From Craspedostauros australis (Eukaryota): a stretch of 36,765 bases of DNA. The DNA lies in contig JALAGF010003341.1 of NCBI GenBank assembly GCA_030167865.1, positions 1 through 36,765 of the forward strand, read 5' to 3'. A program made the position numbers and the translations under genes. How positions within the stretch are numbered: the stretch's first letter is position 1; each line of letters begins with the position of its first letter. Shown piece after piece: positions 19,451 to 36,130 of the stretch. Under the pieces are notes generated by a model. That model made no database searches, had not been told where the DNA came from, and was given only the letters and a program-made list of their open reading frames with translations.

Positions 19451-22005
19451 CTACACCGAGGACCCTGCTACCGTGCCTGGACTCTGCTCCTGCATGTAAG
19501 CACCTCCCTTGTTTGACTTGTGCGACCGGCTGCCGGAATGATCGTCCGTGTGTTGCGTGACGCTGCCGGGCTGGCCCAGGTAGCTCTCGGCCGATCGCTT
19601 CAGTTCGTCGATGTCGGACGGAGACAGCGCTTCGCCTGCCAGCTGTCCCGTTTCCAGCGCCTCACGCACGATGTTCTTGTAGAAGAGGGCCTGCCGCGCC
19701 GTCATCTCGCCGCTGTGGATGCCGCCGTGGAATGACTTGTCCAGTCCGATGACTTCGTCCTTTGCCAAGGAGCGGAAGAGGCCCTGCTTGGAGAGGATCC
19801 AGAAGAAGGGGTACATGAGCGCCACGGTCCATGCCATGATGAAGACACAGCCGACGAGTTGGGCGCCGAGGAGGTTGCCATCGATTTCTTGGCGTTCAAA
19901 GATGGAGTAGAACAAGCCGGGGTGCTTGTCGTTTCCGTAGGCCATCTGCAGTTTGCGTGGCGTGGCGAACAGTCCGACAGCGATCATCCCCCAGATCCCG
20001 TTGAACATGTGCACGGGGATGGCGTTGACAGCGTCATCCAACCGCAGCTGGATGAGGAGCCACGAACCGAAGAGGTAGAAGATGCCCGCGAGGATGCCGA
20101 TGACGACGGATGCCCATGGATCGACGACTCCGCAGCCGGCTGTGATGGCGACCAGCCCGCTGAGAGCGCCGTTCATGACAGGGGCGATGTCGTAGAAGGA
20201 TTCGCCATTGATGATGCTCTGCGCGAGCATGTTGACACCGAGCGCTGACATGCCGGCAGATCCAGCGGCCAGAGTGGTCGTGACAGCAGCGTTTGCCGCA
20301 ATGAGATGAACCTCGTCGCCTTCGAAAAGCAGAGCGGAACCGGCATTGAAGCCGTACCATGCGAACCAAAGGATCATGGTTCCGATCATCTGTTCGTGCA
20401 TTCATAGTCGTACATTCGTGCATTTGTTCATTCGGATTGGTGGAGCCATGGTGGTGTTGATGTTCGCGACGGTGACGATGGCGATGGTGGTGTTCATGTG
20501 AAGAGGTGAGAGTTGCATGCGAAGACGGAAGGGTGCATTCGCGTGTGTGGAAGAATGCACGTTGATGTTCGTGGGATGCACAACACCAAAGCAGGATCAG
20601 GGGAGAAGCGTGAGAAACAGAAAGAGAAAGAGAAAGGACGGGTGTGAGTGCACCTGCGGAGTTTGAATGCAGATTCAGCGCTGCGAGTTTTGCAGGAAGC
20701 GGGCGCCCCGTTGTGAGATGCAAACGGCTTTCTGGTGTGGTGTCTTGATTTTTCGTTGTGAGGTTCGCCTTGTCCTGTTGACAATTTTCCCGTGCACCAA
20801 GAATGGGGAAAAAGTCGCTTTGCTGGCACCAAGAGGATACTTGATGATGAAGTCAGCTCAAGCGAGATTGCGAAACTCCCTTGGACAGTATCGATGACAC
20901 GAGCGCTTTGTCCGCATGCCATGTCAGCGCCTGTCTGCAGATTCTTGGGATCGTTGCGCCGCCCAAACGATCTTTGCGATGCGCTCCCCAGCTTGCTTTC
21001 TCTCTCTTTCTGTGCCACGTCTGGTGGGTTGACTTGGTACTGGTCGTGGTCGCACTTGTATCTGTGTTTGCATCTGTGTTTGATACATACTGCTTGATTG
21101 CAAGATCGTTGAGATTGCGTCGTCACAGCGGTGCCAAGATCGTGGATGGAGATGTTGCGCTCTTGCCGCCTCCTCCATCATCATGCCTCGCCACTCTGTC
21201 TGACGCTACTGCGCTGACTGCTTCGGAATGAACTTACCTGCAAGCTGATGCTGTGACCACGGATCTCCACGGGAACCTCGAGGGGCTCTCCCGTGACTTC
21301 GTCGTGGAATCGACCGCGCCTGGCACCCAGGATATGGGTTGCCACCAAGGCCGTGACGCCGCCCGTCAAGTGCACCACGCCGCTGCCTGCAAAGTCAATG
21401 ACGCCGATATCAAGGAAGGCGCCACCGGGTCTCGCGGGGCTGAGGAAACCTTCGGCACTCCAGATGGAATGCACGACGATGGGGTAGACCCATCCCGACA
21501 CGAAGATGGAGTAGAAGAGGTAGGCCTTCATCTTGCATCGCTCCGCCAAGGTTCCGGCCACGATGGTGACGGCGGCCGCCGAGAAGGCGTACTGGAAGAC
21601 CCAGAACGCGAGATCGTCGACGTCGACGAGGAAGAAGTTCTTCGTGCCCATGAATTGGTTGGGATTGTCGCCATCCCCAAAGGCGAAGGCATATCCCACG
21701 CTCCAGAAGCTCATGGCGGAGCCGCAGGCATCGAGCAGATTCTTGAGCATGGTGTTCTGAAGGTTCTTTCGTCGCACGGCTCCCGCGCAGACCATGGCGA
21801 AGCCTGCCTGCATGAAGAAGACGAGGGCGGCGGCGAGGACGAGGAAGATGTCTCGTGAGTAGGAGGCCTGCACTGTGATGCTGGATTGGTTGCTCTGGAC
21901 CAGCTCCTCCAGCTGCGCCATTCGATTCGTCACGCAGACCAGCAGGGCGTCGGTGGTGCCATCCGAGGAGGCGATGCATGCGCTGTACTCTTCAGTGGAG
22001 CTCAT
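19451..22005 (-). CDS. AMT: Ammonium transporter (AMT1-type), 2 exons (22005-21238, 20389-19451), ~568 aa
   Basis: Motifs FFMQAGFAM, FQYAF, GTLAER, DFAGSGVVH, LWFAWYGFN, NGALSGLVAITAGC and DDAVNAIPVH; both conserved His residues are present. The phase-0 intron 21237-20390 (CAG|gtaagt...aacag|ATG) joins HSISLQ-MIGTMILW. Confidence 0.95.
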
Positions 22006-26281: not shown

Positions 26282-27401
26282 ATGGACGAAGTGAAGAAGA
26301 TCAAAGGAGATGACCTTCTCTTGAAGGTAGGTGCGTTGTCATTGTCGTTGCCATTGTAGTTGATGGCAGTACTCACTCTACCGCTATTGTTCCTATGATA
26401 TGATCTGTCATGCATCCGTGTATGGCTTCGAAGAAGATCGGAGGCCGACTCTCACCATTCCTCCAACTTCTCCATCCATTCATCCATCCATCCATCTATC
26501 TATACTCACACGCTCACAGGTCATCAAATCCACAAAGACCGGAGATGATGCCAAAACCATCCAAAGCGATGATCACGTCCTGATTCAGATCGTCGGCAGA
26601 CAATCGAACGACCTGAACCACATCGACGGACCCATCTTTCAGGACACGAAATCCAAGTCCTGGCTGGTCAAGGCCAGCGCCTCCGATCTGCTGGTCCCCG
26701 CCATCCGCCTCTGCCTGCCGCACTGCAAGGTCGGCCAGACGGTCCATATCTGGTCCACGGCGCAGCATGCCCTCGGCGACAGCGTCCGCAAGCTCGGCAA
26801 GTACCAGCTGCCACCCAACTCCAGCGTCCTCTACACCGTCACGGTCTCCCAAATCGTCATGGACACATCGCGGTTGAATCCTTACTTCACCATCCAACTG
26901 CACAAGACGCGCAAGGAGATCGCCAACGACCTCTACCAATGCCAATTCCGATCGATGTGGCAGCGCGCCATCCTAATTTACGATGCCAGCGGCAAGGCGC
27001 TCGAGACGTTGCTCAATGGCACGTACTTTGCCAGCGTCGAATCGAATCATCCGCAACGCAACGAGACAAGGCAGCTCATGCTGGACTGCTTCAACAACGT
27101 CGTCGCCGTCTGCGTCACGGCCAAACAGTACAAGCGAGGACGCGACGCCGTGCAAACGGTGCTCAAGCATGATGCGAACAACAAGAAGGCGCTGTTGCGC
27201 AATGCCAATCTGGCGTTGATGGACGCGAAGCTGTCGGGTGGTGATCGGGCGCAGGCCATGAAGATGGCGCAAGATGCGATCACGTATCACGATGCGAAGG
27301 AGTTTGCGGAATTGGAGAAGCTGCAGACCAAACTGAAGGCGGCATTGCAAAAGGCGAAGCAGGACAAGGAGGAGGCAGAGGCGGTCCGCGAGGCCGAGTA
27401 G
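26282..27401 (+). CDS. FKBP-like domain + TPR-repeat immunophilin co-chaperone, 2 exons (26282-26326, 26520-27401), ~308 aa
   Basis: Exon 1 encodes MDEVKKIKGDDLLLK, then intron 26327-26519 (AAG|gtaggt...cacag|GTC) is in frame. FKBP-like segment: LPHCKVGQ...HALGD...LPPNSSVLYTVTV. TPR-like segments: KEIANDLY, CFNNVVAVC and NNKKALLRNA. Confidence 0.8.
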
Positions 27402-27627
27402 AGTGGAGAGGTGCGTGCATGTATGTACGGGTGTACACGTGCGGTTTGAGCCTACACCAGGCACATGTCACGCCATACCCTACCATGCCAAGCAATTGAT
27501 AACACACTGCGTTACACTTAGAGTATGCGGAGGCCGATGTTAACTCGTAGACGAGGTGTTCAGTGATCGATCCATTCTATCTGACTCGTACGTACGAGGA
27601 TTCCATCTCATGCTCCATGCACTTGCA

Positions 27628-29874
27628 TCAGAACGGCACGTTATCATAGTCTTCTGGCGCTGGCACATCCGCCTTGTCTTTGGGTGTGTACGCCCTCTTC
27701 TTCTGTGTGGGAGAATAGAACTGGTTGCCGCCGACTGCCGCGGATCGCGCCGATGTGCTGTATTCTCGTTTGGGCATGGGTTCCGAACCCACACCACCAA
27801 ATCCAAAGTGATTTGCGATGGCGCTGTACGAGCGCTCTTCCGCCTCCTGCAGCTTTTCGTAGGGGAAGTTGGACCGCTTCATCTTGTCCAGAAATGTTCG
27901 CTTGATCGTGTAGAAGTCCATGTCATCGTAAAACGAGATCACACGATCCACATCCAACTCCGTCATCCTCATCACCGACAGCTCATCTGCATCCATCGCA
28001 GTCTCATCCGCAGGACGGATCATGGAACCAAAAGGCACATCACGCTCCAGCTCCACCAACACGCGAGACAAACGGGCCTGATCCTCATTCTCCATCAACG
28101 TTTCACGACGCTTCTTCTGCTTGATATCATCCACATTCTCATAAATACCATCCAACGACCCATACTCGTTGATCAGCTGCGCGGCGATCTTCGGTCCAAT
28201 GCCTGGCACACCAGGCACGTTGTCGGCCGCATCACCTGCCAACGCCAACACATCACCCAGCTGATCCGAGTTGACGTTCCACTTCTCGACCACAGCATCA
28301 TGATCGACTCGGCTCATCTTCATGGGATCGATCATCTGACACACCCCAATGCCACCATCGCTGTCAGATGCATTGGGAGTGATGAGCTGCATGAGATCCT
28401 TGTCACCTGACAGGATGTTGACATCCATTCCCATCTGTGTGGCTTTGCATGCCAGAGTGGCGATGACATCATCTGCTTCGAAACCAGCCGCTTCCACTTG
28501 TGGTATGCCGTATGCTCTGCCGGCTTCACGGATGAGACTGAACTGAGGGATGAGATCGACGGGCACGTCGGGTCGTTGTGCTTTGTAGAGGGGATAGATC
28601 TCGTTTCTGAATGTGGGTCCAGGTGCATCGAACACGAGGACGAGTCTTGGTCGTTCTTGGTTGAGCATTCTGTTGAGCAGCATCCTGTTGAGCATGTTGC
28701 AGAATCCGAGGACGGCGCCAACGGGCATTCCGTCGCCTCTGTGCATGGGTGGCATGGAGTGGTATGCTCGGAAGATATAGGCGGATGCATCGACGAGCAG
28801 CAGCGGGTCCTTCGACCGGACCACCTGGCGTTTCTTCGACTCGCCGGCGTTGGGGGCGACGTCCGCCACAACCTTGGACATGATGGGTTTCTTGGAAGCT
28901 GCCGCTGCTTTGGGAGAACGCTTGGGTTTGGTTTGCGTCATGATGTTGAAGACGTGCGTGCCGGCCTCCCTGGCCTCCTTCGTTTTGATCACCCTGGCGC
29001 GGCGGTACTTGAGGCTGCGGTGCTCCAGGATCAATCCGGCCATGGGATTCTGATGCGCGATACCTTCCAGCGTGCTCTTGTTGGTGGACCTCCCCTCGAT
29101 GCCAAAGAGAGCCATGGAAACCTGCTTGGGACTCCCGACCTTGAATTCCTTGCCGTCGTTCATTTCGAAGATGCGCACCTCCAAACTCTCGAGGTCAAGA
29201 TCGATCTGCTCTAACGTGCTTTCCTGGTGGCTGCGTTTGCCGGGCATGGGGGATTGCTTCGTCGTCGCGCCGCGTTCATTTGGCTTGTTTGTTTTGTCTG
29301 CAGCTTGTGCAGTGACCGACGGTTTACTGCCACCGGAAGACGCAGTGGAGTCTTGATCCGGCGCTTCCTTGACTTCGGCATCACTCAAGATGTTGTCATC
29401 CGTGGCCTTCGTGGAGGCGGTCACGGGACCCGCAGACTTCTGTGGAGGCTTCTGTGCAGACTTCTGTGGAAACTTCATTGGTTGATAGCCATATTCATCC
29501 TCATCATGTGCTGTCAAATCCATACCAACATCAACGAAGTCGTTGAGCGAATCGGAAGGATCGGGCAGTGAGGAATATGACATGAAGTCGTTGAACTCAG
29601 CCCCCGACATCTCCTCAGCGTAATTGTTGATGGGCCAATAATGGCTAGAGGCCTCGTCGTCGCCGTCGTCACCGGCCTTGGAGTACAGCGTGGGCGACGA
29701 TGAATAGATGGACTGCCGTTGCTTGCGGAAGTTGTGCGAACGGCCATGCTGCTGCTTCGCTCTGTGCCTCACAGCGCGCCATGCTTGACGCTGAAACGTC
29801 CACATATGCACCACGCGAAACGACGAGGCTATCAGCAACACCGAGAGCAGCCGCCGGAGGTCAGGATTGGGCAT
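27628..29874 (-). CDS. Pol I-type 5'-3' exonuclease (flap endonuclease) with N-terminal Pol A thumb fragment, paralog 1; probably organelle-targeted
   Basis: Nuclease motifs LLVDASAYIFRAYH, VFDAPGPTFRNEIYPLYKAQR, EADDVIATL, SGDKDLMQL and the H3TH motif LAGDAADNVPGVPGIGPKIA. Thumb-like segment EFKVGSPKQVSMALFG...STNKSTLE...LILEHR. Signal-peptide-like N-terminus. Confidence 0.9.
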   Translation of the reverse strand: MPNPDLRRLLSVLLIASSFRVVHMWTFQRQAWRAVRHRAKQQHGRSHNFRKQRQSIYSSSPTLYSKAGDDGDDEASSHYWPINNYAEEMSGAEFNDFMSYSSLPDPSDSLNDFVDVGMDLTAHDEDEYGYQPMKFPQKSAQKPPQKSAGPVTASTKATDDNILSDAEVKEAPDQDSTASSGGSKPSVTAQAADKTNKPNERGATTKQSPMPGKRSHQESTLEQIDLDLESLEVRIFEMNDGKEFKVGSPKQVSMALFGIEGRSTNKSTLEGIAHQNPMAGLILEHRSLKYRRARVIKTKEAREAGTHVFNIMTQTKPKRSPKAAAASKKPIMSKVVADVAPNAGESKKRQVVRSKDPLLLVDASAYIFRAYHSMPPMHRGDGMPVGAVLGFCNMLNRMLLNRMLNQERPRLVLVFDAPGPTFRNEIYPLYKAQRPDVPVDLIPQFSLIREAGRAYGIPQVEAAGFEADDVIATLACKATQMGMDVNILSGDKDLMQLITPNASDSDGGIGVCQMIDPMKMSRVDHDAVVEKWNVNSDQLGDVLALAGDAADNVPGVPGIGPKIAAQLINEYGSLDGIYENVDDIKQKKRRETLMENEDQARLSRVLVELERDVPFGSMIRPADETAMDADELSVMRMTELDVDRVISFYDDMDFYTIKRTFLDKMKRSNFPYEKLQEAEERSYSAIANHFGFGGVGSEPMPKREYSTSARSAAVGGNQFYSPTQKKRAYTPKDKADVPAPEDYDNVPF
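27918..28798. repeat. 881-bp near-identical direct repeat, copy A (5'-3' exonuclease coding segment)
   Basis: Ungapped match to 31039-31919 (offset 3121), with about 26 substitutions counted by eye. Confidence 0.95.
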
Positions 29875-30439
29875 GGCAAACTATGAATGCGGGCTTCGTT
29901 TGCGTATGGGATGCAGAGAATGCTGCGTGTCCTCGAGTTCGTGTTGGTCCTGCACAGTGTTACTGACGATCTACTCACACTCATTGGACTGTGCGCACTG
30001 TGTTGGTTGAGGGATGTTCCGCGTCGATTTGGAAAGTTTCGCGATTTCTCGCAGTTGTGTTGCGCTTGGAAAATTGTTGGTTTGTGTTTCGGATTTTGTG
30101 GAGAATCCTCGACTCGTTCGAATCAATCTCAATTGTGCGATAGTCCACAAACGTCATGATGTGACGAGTTTAGAGGTGTTGTCCGCTCCACTCTACTCTG
30201 CTCTACCGTACTCTACTCGTACATGGTATGATCAGCCTTGACGATCACAACAGAACATTGAATCAAAGAATAGGACCGAGTTAAATTGAGGTGAACAGCT
30301 ATCTTGTTTCTGGTGGTGGAAGGTTGGTGGCGTCTGGTCCCCGGGCCACATCCCACTCTTTGGAATGGTTCCTGCGTTTACTCCTATTATTCGATTCGAC
30401 ATTGTTTCGCAAATTTTGTCGGCGCGGTCGCTGCATTCG

Positions 30440-33073
30440 CTAGAATGGGACACCGTCGTAGTCTTTGGGCGTCGGCACAGCCGCCTGCTTGCTCGCGATG
30501 ATCAGCAGAGCCTTCCGCACGTTTTCGTCTTCGTAGTAATCCAGAAATAGTTCTTCCTTGTACGATGTGAGGAAGATGTCATTGGGTGGGTCCGCAACCA
30601 AGGCCTCCCACTCATCGATGGACCTCGAGCCCTTGCTTTTGGCCTGCTTATGGGCGGAGAGATAGATTTCGGCTGGTGCGCTGGAGAGGAAGTGCTGCGT
30701 CTCTTCAGCGAGAGCAGCAAAGAACTGCCGAGTGCTCGTCGAGGGGAGGATCTGGTCCTCGCCAAGTTGTTCGGTGCGACCGCCGCTGTCGCTGTGATCG
30801 CTTTCGTTGCTATCACTGCGACGGTCGAGATTTATCTGTACCTCTCCTTGGGCGGCCGCATGCGCCGCGTCGGCGCGATCAGTTCCAAGCCTGTCTTTGT
30901 CCTTGCTGTGGTTTGGGTTTGCATTCCCTTCCATCTTGGCGCAGTCAATGCATTCGGTTGAGTTCTTTGCGGATGCCGAGGCTCCTTCGCTTTGCGGTCG
31001 CAATCGTTCTGTCATCTGCTGCTTCACCTTCGTGAATCCCATGTCATCGTAAAACGAGATCACACGATCCACATCCAACTCCGTCATCCTCATCACCGAC
31101 AGCTCACCTGCATCCATCGCAGTCTCATCCGCAGGACGGATCATGGAACCGAAAGGCACATCACGCTCCAGCTCCACCAACACGCGCGACAAACGGGCCT
31201 GATCCTCGTTCTCCATCAACGTCTCACGACGCTTCTTCTGCTTGATATCATACACATTCTCGTAAATGCCATCCAACGACCCATACTCGTTGATCAGCTG
31301 CGCGGCGATCTTCGGTCCAATGCCTGGCACACCAGGCACGTTGTCGGCAGCATCACCTGCCAACGCCAACACATCACCCAGCTGATCCGAGTTGACGTTC
31401 CACTTCTCGATCACAGCGTCATGATCGACTCGGCTCATCTTCATGGGATCGATCATCTGACACACCCCAACACCACCATCGCTGGCAGATGCATTGGGAG
31501 TGATGAGCTGCATGAGATCCTTGTCACCTGACAGGATGTTGACATCCATTCCCATCTGTGTGGCTTTGCATGCCAGAGTGGCGATGACATCATCTGCTTC
31601 GAAACCAGCCGCTTCCACTTGTGGTATGCCGTATGCTCTTCCGGCTTCGCGGATGAGACTGAACTGAGGGATGAGATCGACTGGCACGTCGGGTCGTTGT
31701 GCTTTGTAGAGGGGATATATCTCGTTTCTGAATGTGGGTCCAGGTGCATCGAACACGAGGACGAGTCTTGGTCGCTCTTGGTTGAGCATTCTATTGAGCA
31801 GCATTCTGTTGAGCATGTTGCAGAATCCGAGGACAGCGCCGACGGGCATCCCGTCACCTCTGTGCATGGGTGGCATGGAGTGGTATGCTCGGAAGATGTA
31901 GGCGGATGCATCGACGAGCCACAAGGCGTCGTCGTCGACGGCTTCTGACTGCTGTTCGCTTGATGCATCCATGGATATCGTGCTGTCGGCTGAAAAGTTG
32001 CCGTGTGCGTGTTTCAACGCAGTTCGTGCGCGCCGTTTCCGCCAGAAGTGGCGCATCTTCATTCGTTGGTGCTCTTTCTTCCTTTGCAGACGCGACAGCG
32101 ACGACTTGATAGTGCGATGCTTCAGCATCAACGAAGCAAATTCGCTGTGCCGTGCCATTCTCTCCAACACCTGCTTGCTGGTGGATCGCGTCGCGTTGCC
32201 GAACAGGAGCTTGGCGACCTGCCGGGGACTGTTGACATTGAATTCGGTGCCGTTCGCATGATTCGCAATGATGGCTTCCTCGACCCTCCGAAGCTGCCGG
32301 CTCGCTTCATCCAGCCGATTCTCGAGATACTGTCCGCGTCCACCATACTTGGCGCGCTCCACGAAGAACTTGTATGCGTCTTCATCGATTCCAACCAAAT
32401 GGGAATTTTTGCCCAATTCCACATGGCGCAGTGCAAAATAGCCTTCGGGAACGCTGTTGGCCCTGTCGGTCATCCTGAAGGATGGTTCATAGCCGTCGCT
32501 GTTGCCATCGCCGTGCTCGTCATAAGTATCACCTCCATTGATGCCACGCTGTTTGTGAAACTGATTGATGTACTCGTTGTCGATTGCTCTCCAATATTGC
32601 GCGCTGCTATCCTCCCCCAGTTGTTTCTGTACATCCAAACTGGTACTCATCCTCATTTCGTCACTCCAAAGTCCATCTTCTTTCAGTTGGATTGGTGCAT
32701 CTCCCGCTTCCATCGTTCCATTGACGAGTGGATCATGCGCCTGGGGCGATGGTTTGCCATCCTCTTCTCCCACAGAACGTCGCTGTGCACGGATTCGCGT
32801 GGAAGTTGCACATCTGAATCGATCCGCTTGTGTCCTTCCTCTGTTGTCAGCTCGGAGTCGCAGGAGGATGCCGCCAGCATGGAGAATCGCACCGAAACCC
32901 GAAGATGGCGGGGTTGTGCGGATCCATGTCTCTGGCTTGGCAACATTTCCGACAGTGCTGCTGCCATTGAGGGGATGGAAACCACTGGCCACTCCCTTGC
33001 ACCCATCAAAGCCCGTGTTGCATGGCAGCAACAGCATGATGCGCGTCAACAATCCCAACCACCGACATGTCAT
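30440..33073 (-). CDS. Pol I-type 5'-3' exonuclease with N-terminal Pol A thumb fragment, paralog 2; probably organelle-targeted
   Basis: Same nuclease motifs as paralog 1. Thumb-like segment EFNVNSPRQVAKLLFG...STSKQVLERMA...LMLKHR. Hydrophobic N-terminus followed by VASGFHP. Confidence 0.88.
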   Translation of the reverse strand: MTCRWLGLLTRIMLLLPCNTGFDGCKGVASGFHPLNGSSTVGNVAKPETWIRTTPPSSGFGAILHAGGILLRLRADNRGRTQADRFRCATSTRIRAQRRSVGEEDGKPSPQAHDPLVNGTMEAGDAPIQLKEDGLWSDEMRMSTSLDVQKQLGEDSSAQYWRAIDNEYINQFHKQRGINGGDTYDEHGDGNSDGYEPSFRMTDRANSVPEGYFALRHVELGKNSHLVGIDEDAYKFFVERAKYGGRGQYLENRLDEASRQLRRVEEAIIANHANGTEFNVNSPRQVAKLLFGNATRSTSKQVLERMARHSEFASLMLKHRTIKSSLSRLQRKKEHQRMKMRHFWRKRRARTALKHAHGNFSADSTISMDASSEQQSEAVDDDALWLVDASAYIFRAYHSMPPMHRGDGMPVGAVLGFCNMLNRMLLNRMLNQERPRLVLVFDAPGPTFRNEIYPLYKAQRPDVPVDLIPQFSLIREAGRAYGIPQVEAAGFEADDVIATLACKATQMGMDVNILSGDKDLMQLITPNASASDGGVGVCQMIDPMKMSRVDHDAVIEKWNVNSDQLGDVLALAGDAADNVPGVPGIGPKIAAQLINEYGSLDGIYENVYDIKQKKRRETLMENEDQARLSRVLVELERDVPFGSMIRPADETAMDAGELSVMRMTELDVDRVISFYDDMGFTKVKQQMTERLRPQSEGASASAKNSTECIDCAKMEGNANPNHSKDKDRLGTDRADAAHAAAQGEVQINLDRRSDSNESDHSDSGGRTEQLGEDQILPSTSTRQFFAALAEETQHFLSSAPAEIYLSAHKQAKSKGSRSIDEWEALVADPPNDIFLTSYKEELFLDYYEDENVRKALLIIASKQAAVPTPKDYDGVPF
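31039..31919. repeat. 881-bp near-identical direct repeat, copy B
   Basis: Ungapped match to 27918-28798. Confidence 0.95.
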
Positions 33074-33904
33074 TGCTCATTCGACTCATCCCTGTCTTGA
33101 CTGGTTCCAGATGGTGATTGAATCGTTGAGTGGTTGAGTGGTTGAGTGATTGGGCGCACAAGTATGCGTATGCGTATGGTATGAAGACAGCAGATGATGG
33201 AGCGTGCAGCATCAAGTGAGCTTTAGATGGTGGTGACTGCGACCATTCGAATGGAGGTGGGGATGGAGATGTACGTACGAGTTGTGAGTCAATGTATTGG
33301 TGGTCAGTGTGGATCGGACAGCACCACCAACCGGCGTTGTTCTTCTGTTTTGGATCTTTGTCGGTGTTCGGATTCTTCGGTGTCGAGAACTAACATGAAA
33401 TGGTGGTTGTGCTTCTGATGATGTGATGATTCGATTCTGTCGTCGCCTTTCTCACTGCGACGCCAAAGATGGTGCGAGGAATGGTTGATGTGGCGACACC
33501 CACGCGACCAACATCAAGGCGGGTGGTTGTTGTGGTGGTGTATGCGATGAAGCCCAGCCCAGCCTTGTCATCTCGTCTCTGCTGTCACAACAGCTCGCCA
33601 CACATACCCTTTGAGGTTGTCCCAGAGAAATAAGACGATCATTGGTACAGGACGGTACACTCCTTGTCACAATCGAACAGTGATTCATCCAATCGACGCC
33701 ACCCACGCAACCAGCAGCATACAAAGGATCAAAAGCATCACGCGAACAACGATCAAAATGTCCAGCAGTCAATCGGAAGCGTGAGTTGTCTTGGTTTGGT
33801 TTGGATTGGTTTGGCCGCATCTCTCGGGAGAGGTGTACACAAATGCGACTACGCGTCTGAGCGTCCTTGTTGTACCATTCTGATAGTCCTTGTCACTCAC
33901 ACTG

Positions 33905-36130
33905 ATGCTGGTGCTGGTGCTTTCCTTCTCTGGTCCAATTCAACCTCGACCTCCCAACCATACATCTCTTTCGTCACAATGGAATCAATGTACCATACGC
34001 AGTGACAAGGCTGTCTGTGAGTGGATCAGACAGGTGGACGGTGCATGCATCAATCATAACTTGACAGAGCTTCAAGATCTGGTTGAATCGTATGCGGACG
34101 GAGCAGTCATCCCTTCCAATACGGTAGACGAGTACGGCGAAACTGTGTTTCATCGTGCATGTTCTCATGGAACCAGGGAGATGGTGAAGTATCTGGTGGA
34201 GTCTGATCGAATCGGTGTGGATGTCAATCTCCAAAACACGCAAGGACGCACGCCATTTCATCATGCTTGCTCGAATGGGCACAAGAGCATCGTTGAATAC
34301 TTGGTGGAATCGAATGAAATCGATGTGGATGCCAACATCAAATCCAACAGTGGTCTAACACCACTCTACCTCGCTTGTTCGAGTGGACGAAAAGCCATTG
34401 TTGAGTATCTGATGGAGTCCGATCGAATCGATGTGGATGTCAATATCAAAGACGACGACGGCCGGACAGTGCTTCATGGTGCCTGCAGACACAACAACGC
34501 TGAGACTGTGAAGTATTTATTGGAATCCGGCCGAGTGCCCATCACCATGGAAGACAAAGACGGTTCCACATTGATCCATCACGCATGCGGGAGCAGACGG
34601 CCCGATGTACTGGATTACTTGGTGCAATCGAGTCATGTCAACGTTGACGCTTACATCAACAAACAGGACAAGGAAGGTTGCACGCCTTTGCATGTCGCAT
34701 GTATGTTCGGTCACATCGATGTAGTCAGATACATGATGGAGTCGGATGGGATTGGTGTCGATGTCGACGTCAACGTCCGAGATAACAGTGGGAACACTCC
34801 ACTCCATCATGCTTGTTGCAGTGGAGAGCATGAACTCATCGCATATGTGTTGGGTTTAGATGAACTCGATGTTCGTCCTGAGGTGATTGGACCAAACTGC
34901 GATGGTGATTCGCTGCTTCATCTTGCTAGCCTATGGGTGGAAAGTGATTTGATTATGTGTCTGATGGAAACGGATCGTATCGACATCAACAGCATGCTTG
35001 GTATCAACGGCAACTGCAACATCCATGTCAGCGCTACCGCCAATGGGAGCATTCAAAACAACGAAGGGAATACACCGCTCCATCTCATTCTCAGACATTG
35101 GCCGGTCTTTGACGCGGTTGAGTATCTGATGAATCATGATCGCATCCTCACTCGCATCATGCTTCGCACCCAGAATGACGATGGGAATACGCCCCTCCAC
35201 ATCGCTTGCTTGGAAAGGGAGCGAAGCTTCATCAAGGAATTGCTACAGTCACGCAAGAGCGATGCAATCCTCAACATCAACGACGACGATAATGGCATCC
35301 ATATCGATATCGACGACATCTTCAACATCCAAAACAACCATGGAAATACGCCTCTCCACCTCGCTTGCTTGGAAGGGGATCGAAGCTTCATCAAGGAATT
35401 ACTACAGTCACGCAAGACCGATGCAAACCTCAACATCCAAAACAAACATGGTGACACACCCCTTCACATTGCATTCAACAGGGGCATGTTCTTCACCTTC
35501 AATCACACCGCCAGGCTTCATCACGTCTTCGATTTCATCCAACACCAATTCATTCCCACAACCAACCTCATCCATCTCTCCAACAAGCACAACCATGATG
35601 TTGGTGATGGTGATACCGTTGGTGATATGGAGATCATGCAACGGTTGAGGGAGAATGCCACAGCAATCGCGAACATTCAGAATCATGATGGCACCACTCT
35701 CCTCCATCTCGCATGCAAGAAGGGTGATGTTTCTGTCCTTCGGAATCTGATCGGATGTGACTCAGTGGATGCCACGTTGCGAAACAGCAGGGGTGATACA
35801 GCATTGCACTGTATTTGCAAAGGAGCAGATAGAAATGTATCTGAGGATGGATGTGAAAGTGAGAGCGAGAGCGATGATCACAAGATTCGAGCTGAGAAGA
35901 TGAAACTGTTGGTCGAATCGAACAAGGTGGATGTGGATGTGAACATGGTGAACGATGAGGGAGATACGGTGCTGCACTGTGCTGTGAAAGGCGAGTATTT
36001 GGAAGTGGTTGAGTATCTGATGACATTGGAGATGATCGATCCGCACATGCAGAACAAGAGTGGTGATACGCCGTTGCAATGTGCACAAGAGGAAGGTTGC
36101 GATGGGAGAATGTTGGCATTGTTTGAATAG
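33905..36130 (+). CDS. Ankyrin-repeat protein (roughly 15 repeats)
   Basis: Repeated G-x-T-P-[LF]-H-x-A-C...[IV]V-x-YL motifs separated by DVDVN linkers. The start codon is uncertain. Confidence 0.9.
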   Translation: MLVLVLSFSGPIQPRPPNHTSLSSQWNQCTIRSDKAVCEWIRQVDGACINHNLTELQDLVESYADGAVIPSNTVDEYGETVFHRACSHGTREMVKYLVESDRIGVDVNLQNTQGRTPFHHACSNGHKSIVEYLVESNEIDVDANIKSNSGLTPLYLACSSGRKAIVEYLMESDRIDVDVNIKDDDGRTVLHGACRHNNAETVKYLLESGRVPITMEDKDGSTLIHHACGSRRPDVLDYLVQSSHVNVDAYINKQDKEGCTPLHVACMFGHIDVVRYMMESDGIGVDVDVNVRDNSGNTPLHHACCSGEHELIAYVLGLDELDVRPEVIGPNCDGDSLLHLASLWVESDLIMCLMETDRIDINSMLGINGNCNIHVSATANGSIQNNEGNTPLHLILRHWPVFDAVEYLMNHDRILTRIMLRTQNDDGNTPLHIACLERERSFIKELLQSRKSDAILNINDDDNGIHIDIDDIFNIQNNHGNTPLHLACLEGDRSFIKELLQSRKTDANLNIQNKHGDTPLHIAFNRGMFFTFNHTARLHHVFDFIQHQFIPTTNLIHLSNKHNHDVGDGDTVGDMEIMQRLRENATAIANIQNHDGTTLLHLACKKGDVSVLRNLIGCDSVDATLRNSRGDTALHCICKGADRNVSEDGCESESESDDHKIRAEKMKLLVESNKVDVDVNMVNDEGDTVLHCAVKGEYLEVVEYLMTLEMIDPHMQNKSGDTPLQCAQEEGCDGRMLALFE

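Follow-up and report, generated by a model that had tools for sequence, protein, structure and literature searches.

Can a single subdomain of a DNA polymerase be reused in a protein that has no polymerase at all? This question is raised by two tandem minus-strand genes, here called W1 and W2, in a 36,765-nucleotide stretch of the diatom Craspedostauros australis (NCBI GenBank assembly GCA_030167865.1, contig JALAGF010003341.1, positions 1 to 36,765 of the forward strand), which we refer to as the window. Each gene is an open reading frame (ORF) that runs from ATG to stop without interruption, and each encodes a segment resembling the thumb of family A DNA polymerases (Pol A) followed by a 5'-3' exonuclease/flap endonuclease (FEN) like that of bacterial DNA polymerase I (Pol I). 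The original prediction, made from the letters of the stretch, placed thumb-like segments in both genes at ~29220-29000 and ~32330-32090, and both these coordinates and the residue pattern that it quoted are present in the translations. The features of the two genes are shown in Table 1.

A polymerase thumb upstream of the nuclease

The thumb-like segment is ~80 residues long and lies about 60-140 residues N-terminal of the nuclease. In W1 (residues 219-297) it matches the Pfam family DNA_pol_A (PF00476) with 27.7 bits (E 1.7e-6) at profile positions 6-94 of 381, and in W2 (residues 249-328) with 29.2 bits (E 6e-7) at positions 3-91. A profile of 79 family members (A1), made from residues 205-748 of W1, the matching part of W2 and 77 relatives, was searched against all Protein Data Bank (PDB) sequences. 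Among the polymerase large fragments, which are without the 5' nuclease, it matched the Bst/Geobacillus enzyme at E 4.1e-10 (42.4 bits), Klenow at 6.7e-6 and Klentaq at ~2e-4, and these matches form one stretch each, confined to the thumb segment. Comparison of A1 with E. coli Klenow (K-12 record) using hhalign gave a probability of 95.2% (E 2.7e-8, 38% identity over 69 columns) at Pol I residues 555-634, and a second alignment, headed by W2, gave 95.1% (E 3.1e-8). Conversely, a hidden Markov model (HMM) of the family thumb locates the thumb at its usual place in 128/128 full-length bacterial Pol I proteins, with scores of 21.9-48.3 bits. Language-model features of W2 residues 240-335 point the same way, with DNA_pol_A clusters in 27 of 30 matches, and we regard these as a lead only.

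The original prediction also proposed that the segment be modelled. AlphaFold2 was run on residues 205-748 of W1, from which the model numbering starts, and gave a mean predicted local distance difference test (pLDDT) score of 86.6 and a predicted template modelling score of 0.82. In the segment two long helices are predicted, with two short ones between them (in order, model residues 10-34, 45-53, 62-68 and 73-100; pLDDT of 96-98), and this agrees with the thumb of family A polymerases, for which an antiparallel coiled coil of helices H and I is described (PMC10520511). Helices H, H1, H2 and I of the PF00476 thumb subdomain are thus recognised by profile, by hhalign and by model topology. By these comparisons the segment is truly homologous to the Pol A thumb, as first proposed.

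The nuclease is complete and the polymerase is absent

The downstream domain shows every feature that was tested for. The PIN-like N-terminal nuclease (PF02739) is matched with 163.8 bits in W1 and 162.8 bits in W2 (Pfam cut-off 34.3), and the helix-three-turn-helix (H3TH) DNA-binding domain of SAM fold (PF01367) with 103.7 and 100.9 bits (cut-off 40). The nuclease part has the FEN fold. In PDB searches the family profile matches the 5' nuclease of bacterial Pol I at E 7.2e-68 (6vde) and 2e-67 (Taq); fold searches with the whole W1 model returned matches filled by the nuclease and said nothing on the thumb. The W1/W2 nuclease belongs to the Pol I-type FEN family. Nine metal-binding carboxylate positions are invariant in 122/122 aligned sequences, W1 and W2 included; they are equivalent to Taq D18, D67, E117, D119, D120, D142, D144, D188 and D191. 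Since all nine are invariant, the enzyme should be active, to judge by its residues. Pfam matches and carboxylates together bear out the claim that an intact FEN-type nuclease follows the thumb, in an order opposite to that of Pol I.

No other part of a polymerase was found. Palm motifs A and C and fingers motif B were not detected, the DNA_pol_A profile being matched at positions 3-94 of 381 only, and neither W1 nor W2 has a match to the 3'-5' exonuclease family PF01612. With the NCBIfam DNA polymerase I models the scores are 318-328 bits, where the cut-offs are 600-720. At E<=1 Pfam matches nothing in the N-terminal parts or C-terminal extensions of the proteins, nor in the ORFs that separate and flank the two genes, save an insignificant ARC6 row (E 0.11), and none of 15 other large ORFs tested in the window matches a polymerase or proofreading-exonuclease family. 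W1 and W2 are not family A polymerases, because the catalytic parts were tested for and are absent; the Pfam scans agree with the earlier statement that no polymerase motifs and no 3'-5' exonuclease are visible in the genes, and palm, fingers and proofreading domain are missing from the flanks as well.

A family with the same domain order

The original prediction suggested searching other proteomes for the same domain order. We collected 188 proteins in which the thumb precedes the nuclease, together with 134 classical Pol I proteins with the opposite order, the one that bacterial Pol I shows without exception. Among 8000 candidates scored, 7829 are relatives of W1 at E<=0.001; the best 120 of these, of 438-1015 residues, all have the thumb before the nuclease by local HMMs (120/120), and 109 of the 120 carry a precomputed PF00476 match. 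The closest relatives of W1 that bear names are from diatoms. Named sources of the family are Mayamaea, Seminavis, Chaetoceros, Fistulifera, Nitzschia, Bacillariaceae sp., Thalassiosira profunda, Triparma columacea and Proboscia alata, and every named member comes from a diatom or from the bolidophyte Triparma. Several relatives with the same domain order are transcriptome ORFs labelled 'type:complete' by their source. Automatic annotation already records the Pfam matches, and sometimes misnames these proteins 'DNA polymerase I'. Because 188 proteins share it, the thumb-before-nuclease order is no local accident.

An exhaustive profile search of 1.84 billion representatives gave 40470 matches, and 129 proteins among the best 150 were new. 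The thumb comes ahead of the nuclease in 40 of these, 69 are classical Pol I proteins (~900 residues, opposite order) and 20 are nuclease only; five of the 20 nuclease-only proteins carry the family tail and are therefore N-terminally cut fragments. A search begun from the most divergent member recovered 57 family members and then went straight to alphaproteobacterial Pol I, with no other eukaryotic lineage in between. Among proteins of 1310-3740 residues there are seven weak relatives, none with the thumb before the nuclease (0/7), which is weak evidence of absence. A metagenome scan with A1 found the thumb before the nuclease in 0 of the 80 loci kept, the patterns it searched with being generic nuclease motifs. 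In the ESM Atlas there are bacterial clusters (commonest phylum Minisyncoccota) of proteins of 450-475 residues, named 'Fragment', with a 5' nuclease and a partial DNA_pol_A match; these may be truncated Pol I proteins or a real form made of a nuclease plus a piece of polymerase.

A thumb HMM built without W1 and W2 separates the groups cleanly, the family minimum being 50.9 bits and the Pol I maximum 49.8 bits. The W1 and W2 thumbs score 87.2 and 82.5 bits on this model, so neither is decaying. With the thumb HMM the alphaproteobacterial Pol I proteins average 43.5 bits (n=63) and other Pol I proteins 37.2 bits (n=65), values that do not discriminate the origin of the thumb. Rearrangement of one Pol I is one possible origin, and the thumb donor could be the same Pol I, another Pol I, or POP, an organellar polymerase known from plants.

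The conserved residues of the thumb

In the crystal structure of M. smegmatis Pol1, as described in PMC7102940, Asn558, Ser561 and Gln564 hold a pair of consecutive template-strand phosphates. An N..S..Q motif of the family aligns exactly onto these three residues and is conserved as N in 119/122, S in 117/122 and Q in 121/122 sequences. A review lists Klenow T609, E611 and R631 as DNA-phosphate contacts (PMC10520511). In the hhalign alignment the family position at T609 is T in 116/122 sequences, that at R631 is R in 122/122, and that at E611 is K or R in 122/122. By alignment, then, the best-conserved residues of the thumb (N..S..Q, ST and the invariant R) coincide with the ones that touch the phosphate backbone of DNA in solved complexes of Pol I. 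The segment is under purifying selection, as was suggested from its retention in both paralogues; the basis is the 188 relatives of the same order more than the two local genes.

The C-terminal tip and other parts

Three blocks are conserved in the family: the thumb (W1 residues ~218-300), the nuclease (356-660) and the C-terminal tip. The N-terminus varies, and so does the linker of 16-78 residues that joins the thumb to the nuclease. The tip has the consensus ...P.PEDY.DVPF-COOH and is the sole likeness between the W1 and W2 proteins outside nuclease and thumb. An ending x[VIL][PS]F is present in 117 of the best 120 relatives of W1 and in 149/155 family members with at least 25 residues after the nuclease, and one divergent member ends ...VDEIPF. 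Both W1 (...EDYDNVPF) and W2 (...KDYDGVPF) have acidic residues followed by [IVL]-P-F at a free C-terminus, as in the tip, DDDIPF, of bacterial SSB, a protein that binds single-stranded DNA (PMC5872125). The acidic C-terminus of SSB is described as recruiting many proteins, and the acidic tail of T7 gp2.5 as binding T7 polymerase and helicase-primase (PMC11873582).

A short stretch directly after helix I is ordered in the model (model residues 101-120, pLDDT 91 and 70, with a beta bridge at 103). Structural alignments of the model with FEN1-type nucleases start at model residues 100-102, and those with bacterial nucleases at 150-152. According to PMC5499597, FEN1-type nucleases possess one more strand, N-terminal to S1, than the Pol I type does. 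As FEN1-type alignments begin in the post-thumb stretch, this stretch may add a strand to the nuclease sheet, comparable to the seventh strand in FEN1-type enzymes, and may tether the thumb there by its base; we offer this as a lead.

At the N-terminus of each protein a hydrophobic stretch leads into [AGS]x[AGS]F (W1 ...IASS/F), a layout that resembles the plastid presequences of diatoms. An acidic-aromatic motif, GAYDY.PD, stands upstream of the thumb in 28/167 family members and 0 times in a reversed-sequence control; it is weakly recognisable in W1 (residues ~90-106, ~29557-29607) and in W2, and is probably a linear motif of a sub-clade.

What the thumb may do

We think it probable, without great confidence, that W1 and W2 are stand-alone FENs in which a trimmed thumb adds a second element for binding duplex DNA. 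If plant OEX1 and Plasmodium PfExo are a guide, the enzyme would work on its own as a Pol I-type 5'-3' exonuclease/flap endonuclease, probably in an organelle that contains DNA, and would trim RNA primers and 5' flaps there in place of the nuclease domain that is absent from POP. In E. coli Pol I the DNA is reported to pass between the polymerase and 5' nuclease sites within one molecule, with the upstream duplex shifting by only ~7 Angstrom relative to the thumb (PMC7952088), and in a crystal of full-length M. smegmatis Pol1 the FEN domain packs against the thumb (PMC7102940). A nuclease freed from the polymerase would lose this grip on the upstream duplex, and the thumb may partly restore it through contacts to the template strand and minor groove. 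As modelled, the trimmed thumb is an antiparallel stalk of two helices with two short helices at its tip, and it keeps the residues with which Pol I grips backbone phosphates across the minor groove; beside the H3TH it would hold the upstream duplex at a nick, gap or flap junction. Such an element could give affinity or junction specificity for nicks, gaps and flaps. The acidic-aromatic tip, ...PEDYxDVPF-COOH, would then probably be a docking peptide, acting in cis or on a replisome partner. When the complex of nuclease (A1 150-462) and thumb (A1 5-100) was predicted as separate pieces it scored 0.00 against a mark of 0.34, in a run in which the alignment was unused and the stretch after helix I was left out, and this score speaks neither for nor against a contact.

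Several observations weigh against such a DNA grip, or against the organellar setting. The DNA_pol_A matches of W1 and W2 are both under the Pfam cut-off of 34.3 bits, and W1 has K at the conserved N of the N..S..Q motif. The claim that the thumb was kept holds for its homology and not for its completeness: the tip loop has a median of 4 residues in the family (range 2-8, n=149) as against 15 in Pol I (n=90), the expression used to find it being unmatched in 39/188 family members and 44/134 Pol I proteins. In the Klenow alignment E. coli residues 596-606 have no counterpart in the family thumb. By their position, the deleted residues appear to be the counterpart of the M. smegmatis Pol1 tip hairpin (residues 579-585), which bears several primer-strand contacts; moreover, the thumb tip of the apoenzyme (residues 546-601) is disordered without DNA, so that an isolated thumb may bind weakly (both PMC7102940). 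The thumb block is not strongly basic, with a mean net charge of +1.3 (W1 0, W2 +8). The C-terminal tip has a pLDDT of 85 in the W1 monomer model, which suggests that it docks somewhere on its own protein and would allow for the thumb to be regulatory. Finally, a crude test for a signal peptide plus [AGS]x[AGS]F is passed by only 14/169 family members, W1 and W2 included.

The strongest alternative, which we regard as unlikely but take seriously, is that the thumb is a protein-binding or regulatory module and not a DNA clamp. Its stalk would bind the acidic tip of the same protein, giving auto-inhibition, or would dock the nuclease on the organellar polymerase or another partner, much as the acidic tail of T7 gp2.5 binds T7 DNA polymerase. 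The tip is as conserved as the domains (149/155), and its pLDDT of 85 in the monomer model is unusual for a free tail; the K or R found in every sequence at the Klenow E611 position means that the thumb offers basic residues. Protein docking by the acidic tails of SSB and gp2.5 is known (PMC11873582, PMC5872125), and OEX1 is reported to interact with POL1A and POL1B in yeast two-hybrid assays (10.1101/2024.11.05.621957). However, the best-conserved thumb residues are the phosphate contacts of Pol I, which a pure dock would not need.

A fuller version of the duplex-binding reading, which we consider unlikely, is that a Pol I-type 5' nuclease of bacterial kind has become, by three additions, the functional counterpart of eukaryotic FEN1: the thumb would grip the upstream duplex, the extra strand would anchor the thumb, and the tail, mimicking that of SSB, would plug into the SSB-interaction pockets of a bacterial-type organellar replisome. 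If this were true, a polymerase subdomain would be acting as an autonomous DNA-binding module in a nuclease recruited by imitation of SSB.

It is very improbable that chance has preserved the thumb-like piece as a relic without function, left by the decay of a Pol I gene or by exon capture. The Pfam scores under threshold, the lost tip loop and the 39% identity between the W1 and W2 thumbs would fit such decay, but the segment is present in 188 relatives, the named ones spanning diatoms and Triparma, with invariant and near-invariant residues, and the two copies lie well inside the family range of the thumb HMM (87 and 82 bits) with a pLDDT of 96-98 in the model. Least probable of all is that the ORFs are exons or fragments of a larger, complete Pol I-like gene and their permuted order an artefact of gene models: some relatives are named 'DNA polymerase I' by their source, and introns may exist here, as the ammonium transporter of the window is split into two ORFs, but W1 and W2 each run uninterrupted from ATG to stop and end in the conserved C-terminal tip of the family, their proteins and flanks have no further Pfam match at E<=1 apart from the ARC6 row, 'type:complete' transcriptome relatives have the same order, and it occurs in none of the seven weak matches of 1310-3740 residues.

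The reading of the thumb as a second duplex-binding element has some wider meaning. Stand-alone organellar 5' nucleases have been characterised only recently (OEX1 in plants, PfExo in Plasmodium), and they raise the question of how nick and flap junctions are found without a polymerase core, which diatoms appear to have answered by recycling part of a polymerase. If the thumb binds DNA alone, a subdomain that is inserted in the palm would be an excisable and reusable module, and could serve as a compact duplex-binding tag. The C-terminal tip offers a direct handle for pulling down partners in the diatom organellar replisome.

Paralogues and probable gene conversion

The W1 and W2 proteins are 98% identical in the nuclease and 39% identical in the thumb, and their N- and C-terminal extensions are unrelated. 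By blastn, 27918-28798 and 31039-31919 are 97.0% identical over 881 bp, with 26 mismatches and no gaps, and outside this tract blastn detects no similarity between the DNA of the two genes. The two thumbs are no closer to each other than each is to those of other diatoms (means 40% and 38%). In a tree from 112 columns outside the tract, W1, W2 and sequence P0031 group loosely, with support of 0.46-0.55, and the distance between W1 and W2 on these columns is 1.67 substitutions per site. The simplest reading of these comparisons is an old tandem duplication whose catalytic cores have been kept alike by gene conversion. The original description of the genes as diverged paralogues is thus apt for the thumbs and not for the nuclease cores.

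The locus

Table 1. Coordinates of W1, W2, their parts and side features in the window.
Feature	Positions	Strand	Residues	Description
W1 (paralogue 1), ORF	27628..29874	-	748 in all	Pfam, family alignment; variable N-terminus, thumb-like segment, linker, 5'-3' exonuclease/FEN, C-terminal extension and conserved tip
W1 thumb-like segment	28975..29223	-	218-300	helices H, H1, H2 and I of the Pol A thumb, tip loop deleted
W1 post-thumb stretch	28897..28965	-	304-326	ordered in the model; one beta bridge and one short helix, before the disordered linker
W1 5'-3' exonuclease/FEN with H3TH	27895..28809	-	356-660	residues 358-617: Pfam 5_3_exonuc_N E 3.5e-48, 5_3_exonuc E 7.4e-30
W1 copy of putative gene-conversion tract	27918..28798	-	~359-652	nuclease core; blastn
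W1 C-terminal tip	27631..27675	-	734-748	ends ...PEDYDNVPF
W2 (paralogue 2), ORF	30440..33073	-	877 in all	layout as W1; N- and C-terminal extensions differ
W2 thumb-like segment	32090..32329	-	249-328	Pfam DNA_pol_A, hhalign, family thumb HMM
W2 5'-3' exonuclease/FEN with H3TH	31016..31930	-	382-686	residues 384-643: Pfam 5_3_exonuc_N E 7.6e-48, 5_3_exonuc E 5.7e-29
W2 copy of putative gene-conversion tract	31039..31919	-		nuclease core; blastn
W2 C-terminal tip	30443..30487	-	863-877	ends ...PKDYDGVPF
Ammonium transporter (PF00909), ORF	19451..20401	-		profile positions 193-395
Ammonium transporter (PF00909), ORF	21181..22005	-		profile positions 2-191
ORF convergent with W1	26400..27401	+		no Pfam family
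Ankyrin-repeat protein	33890..36130	+	746 in all	Ank_2 E 1e-95; directly upstream of W2, opposite strand

The ORFs around W1 and W2 encode a RING finger, a CRAL/TRIO protein, an ammonium transporter in two ORFs and an ankyrin-repeat protein, and because of these neighbours we take the window to be eukaryotic nuclear DNA. The two ammonium transporter ORFs are ~780 bp apart, and either an intron or an insertion may lie between them.

Contigs of run X1, a single run that can only be guessed to be RNA, cover 27400-28734, 30276-30748 and 30874-31034 with no differing letters and no joints, and the other parts of W1 and W2 have no X1 cover. One X1 contig of 2333 letters (26402-28734) spans the convergent ORF and the 3' part of W1, with no differences over 27400-28734, and ends near the edge of the gene-conversion tract.

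Comparison with known systems

In the literature searched we found no paper on a thumb-before-nuclease architecture in diatoms, although supplements could list such sequences, and the word 'thumb' occurs 0 times in the texts consulted on OEX1, on PfExo, on organellar family A polymerases (an encyclopedia entry) and on PIN classification. A cryptophyte Pol III preprint proved to be unrelated and is not on diatoms.

W1 and W2 share with bacterial Pol I (E. coli PolA, Taq, M. smegmatis Pol1) a homologous 5' nuclease and thumb with the phosphate-contact residues kept. They differ in the reversed order, in the absence of the 3'-5' exonuclease, palm, fingers and motifs A, B and C, and in the deleted tip loop; the family has a linker of 16-78 residues where Pol I has ~250, as well as a eukaryotic N-terminal extension and a C-terminal tip. 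Stand-alone bacterial FENs such as M. smegmatis FenA and E. coli ExoIX/Xni have neither an accessory thumb nor a conserved C-terminal tip. Eukaryotic and archaeal FEN1 offers an analogy, having an extra N-terminal strand and a C-terminal clamp-binding peptide, as described in PMC5499597, where the family has its ordered stretch and tip. FEN1 belongs to Pfam XPG_I, however, and its peptide is a PCNA-binding motif unlike ...PEDYxDVPF. The resemblance is a functional speculation. The tip is like the DDDIPF of bacterial SSB, with acidic residues and then [IV]-P-F at the C-terminus, but it stands on a nuclease and not on an OB-fold protein, and it carries an aromatic residue at -5, with P.P before it.

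Red algae are reported to keep a plastid PolI with both 5' nuclease and polymerase domains (PMC4166229). Plant organellar polymerases are without a 5' nuclease, and OEX1 is described as supplying exonuclease, flap and RNA:DNA activities (10.1101/2024.11.05.621957); OEX1 and OEX2 are organellar 5'-3' exonuclease/FEN proteins for which that text reports no thumb. The chains of PDB entries 9l55 and 9l56, 'Plastid-localized exonuclease 1', match the family profile over the nuclease only, and no accompanying paper was found in the literature searched. The Plasmodium apicoplast uses PfExo, a stand-alone FEN from the same Pfam families; the family A polymerase that this organellar enzyme serves has no 5' nuclease (PMC11260460). 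What alters DNA binding in PfExo is a low-complexity insertion, whereas W1 and W2 have a polymerase thumb. By analogy it is plausible that W1 and W2 work like OEX1 or PfExo, both reported without a thumb, with the diatom proteins carrying one in addition.

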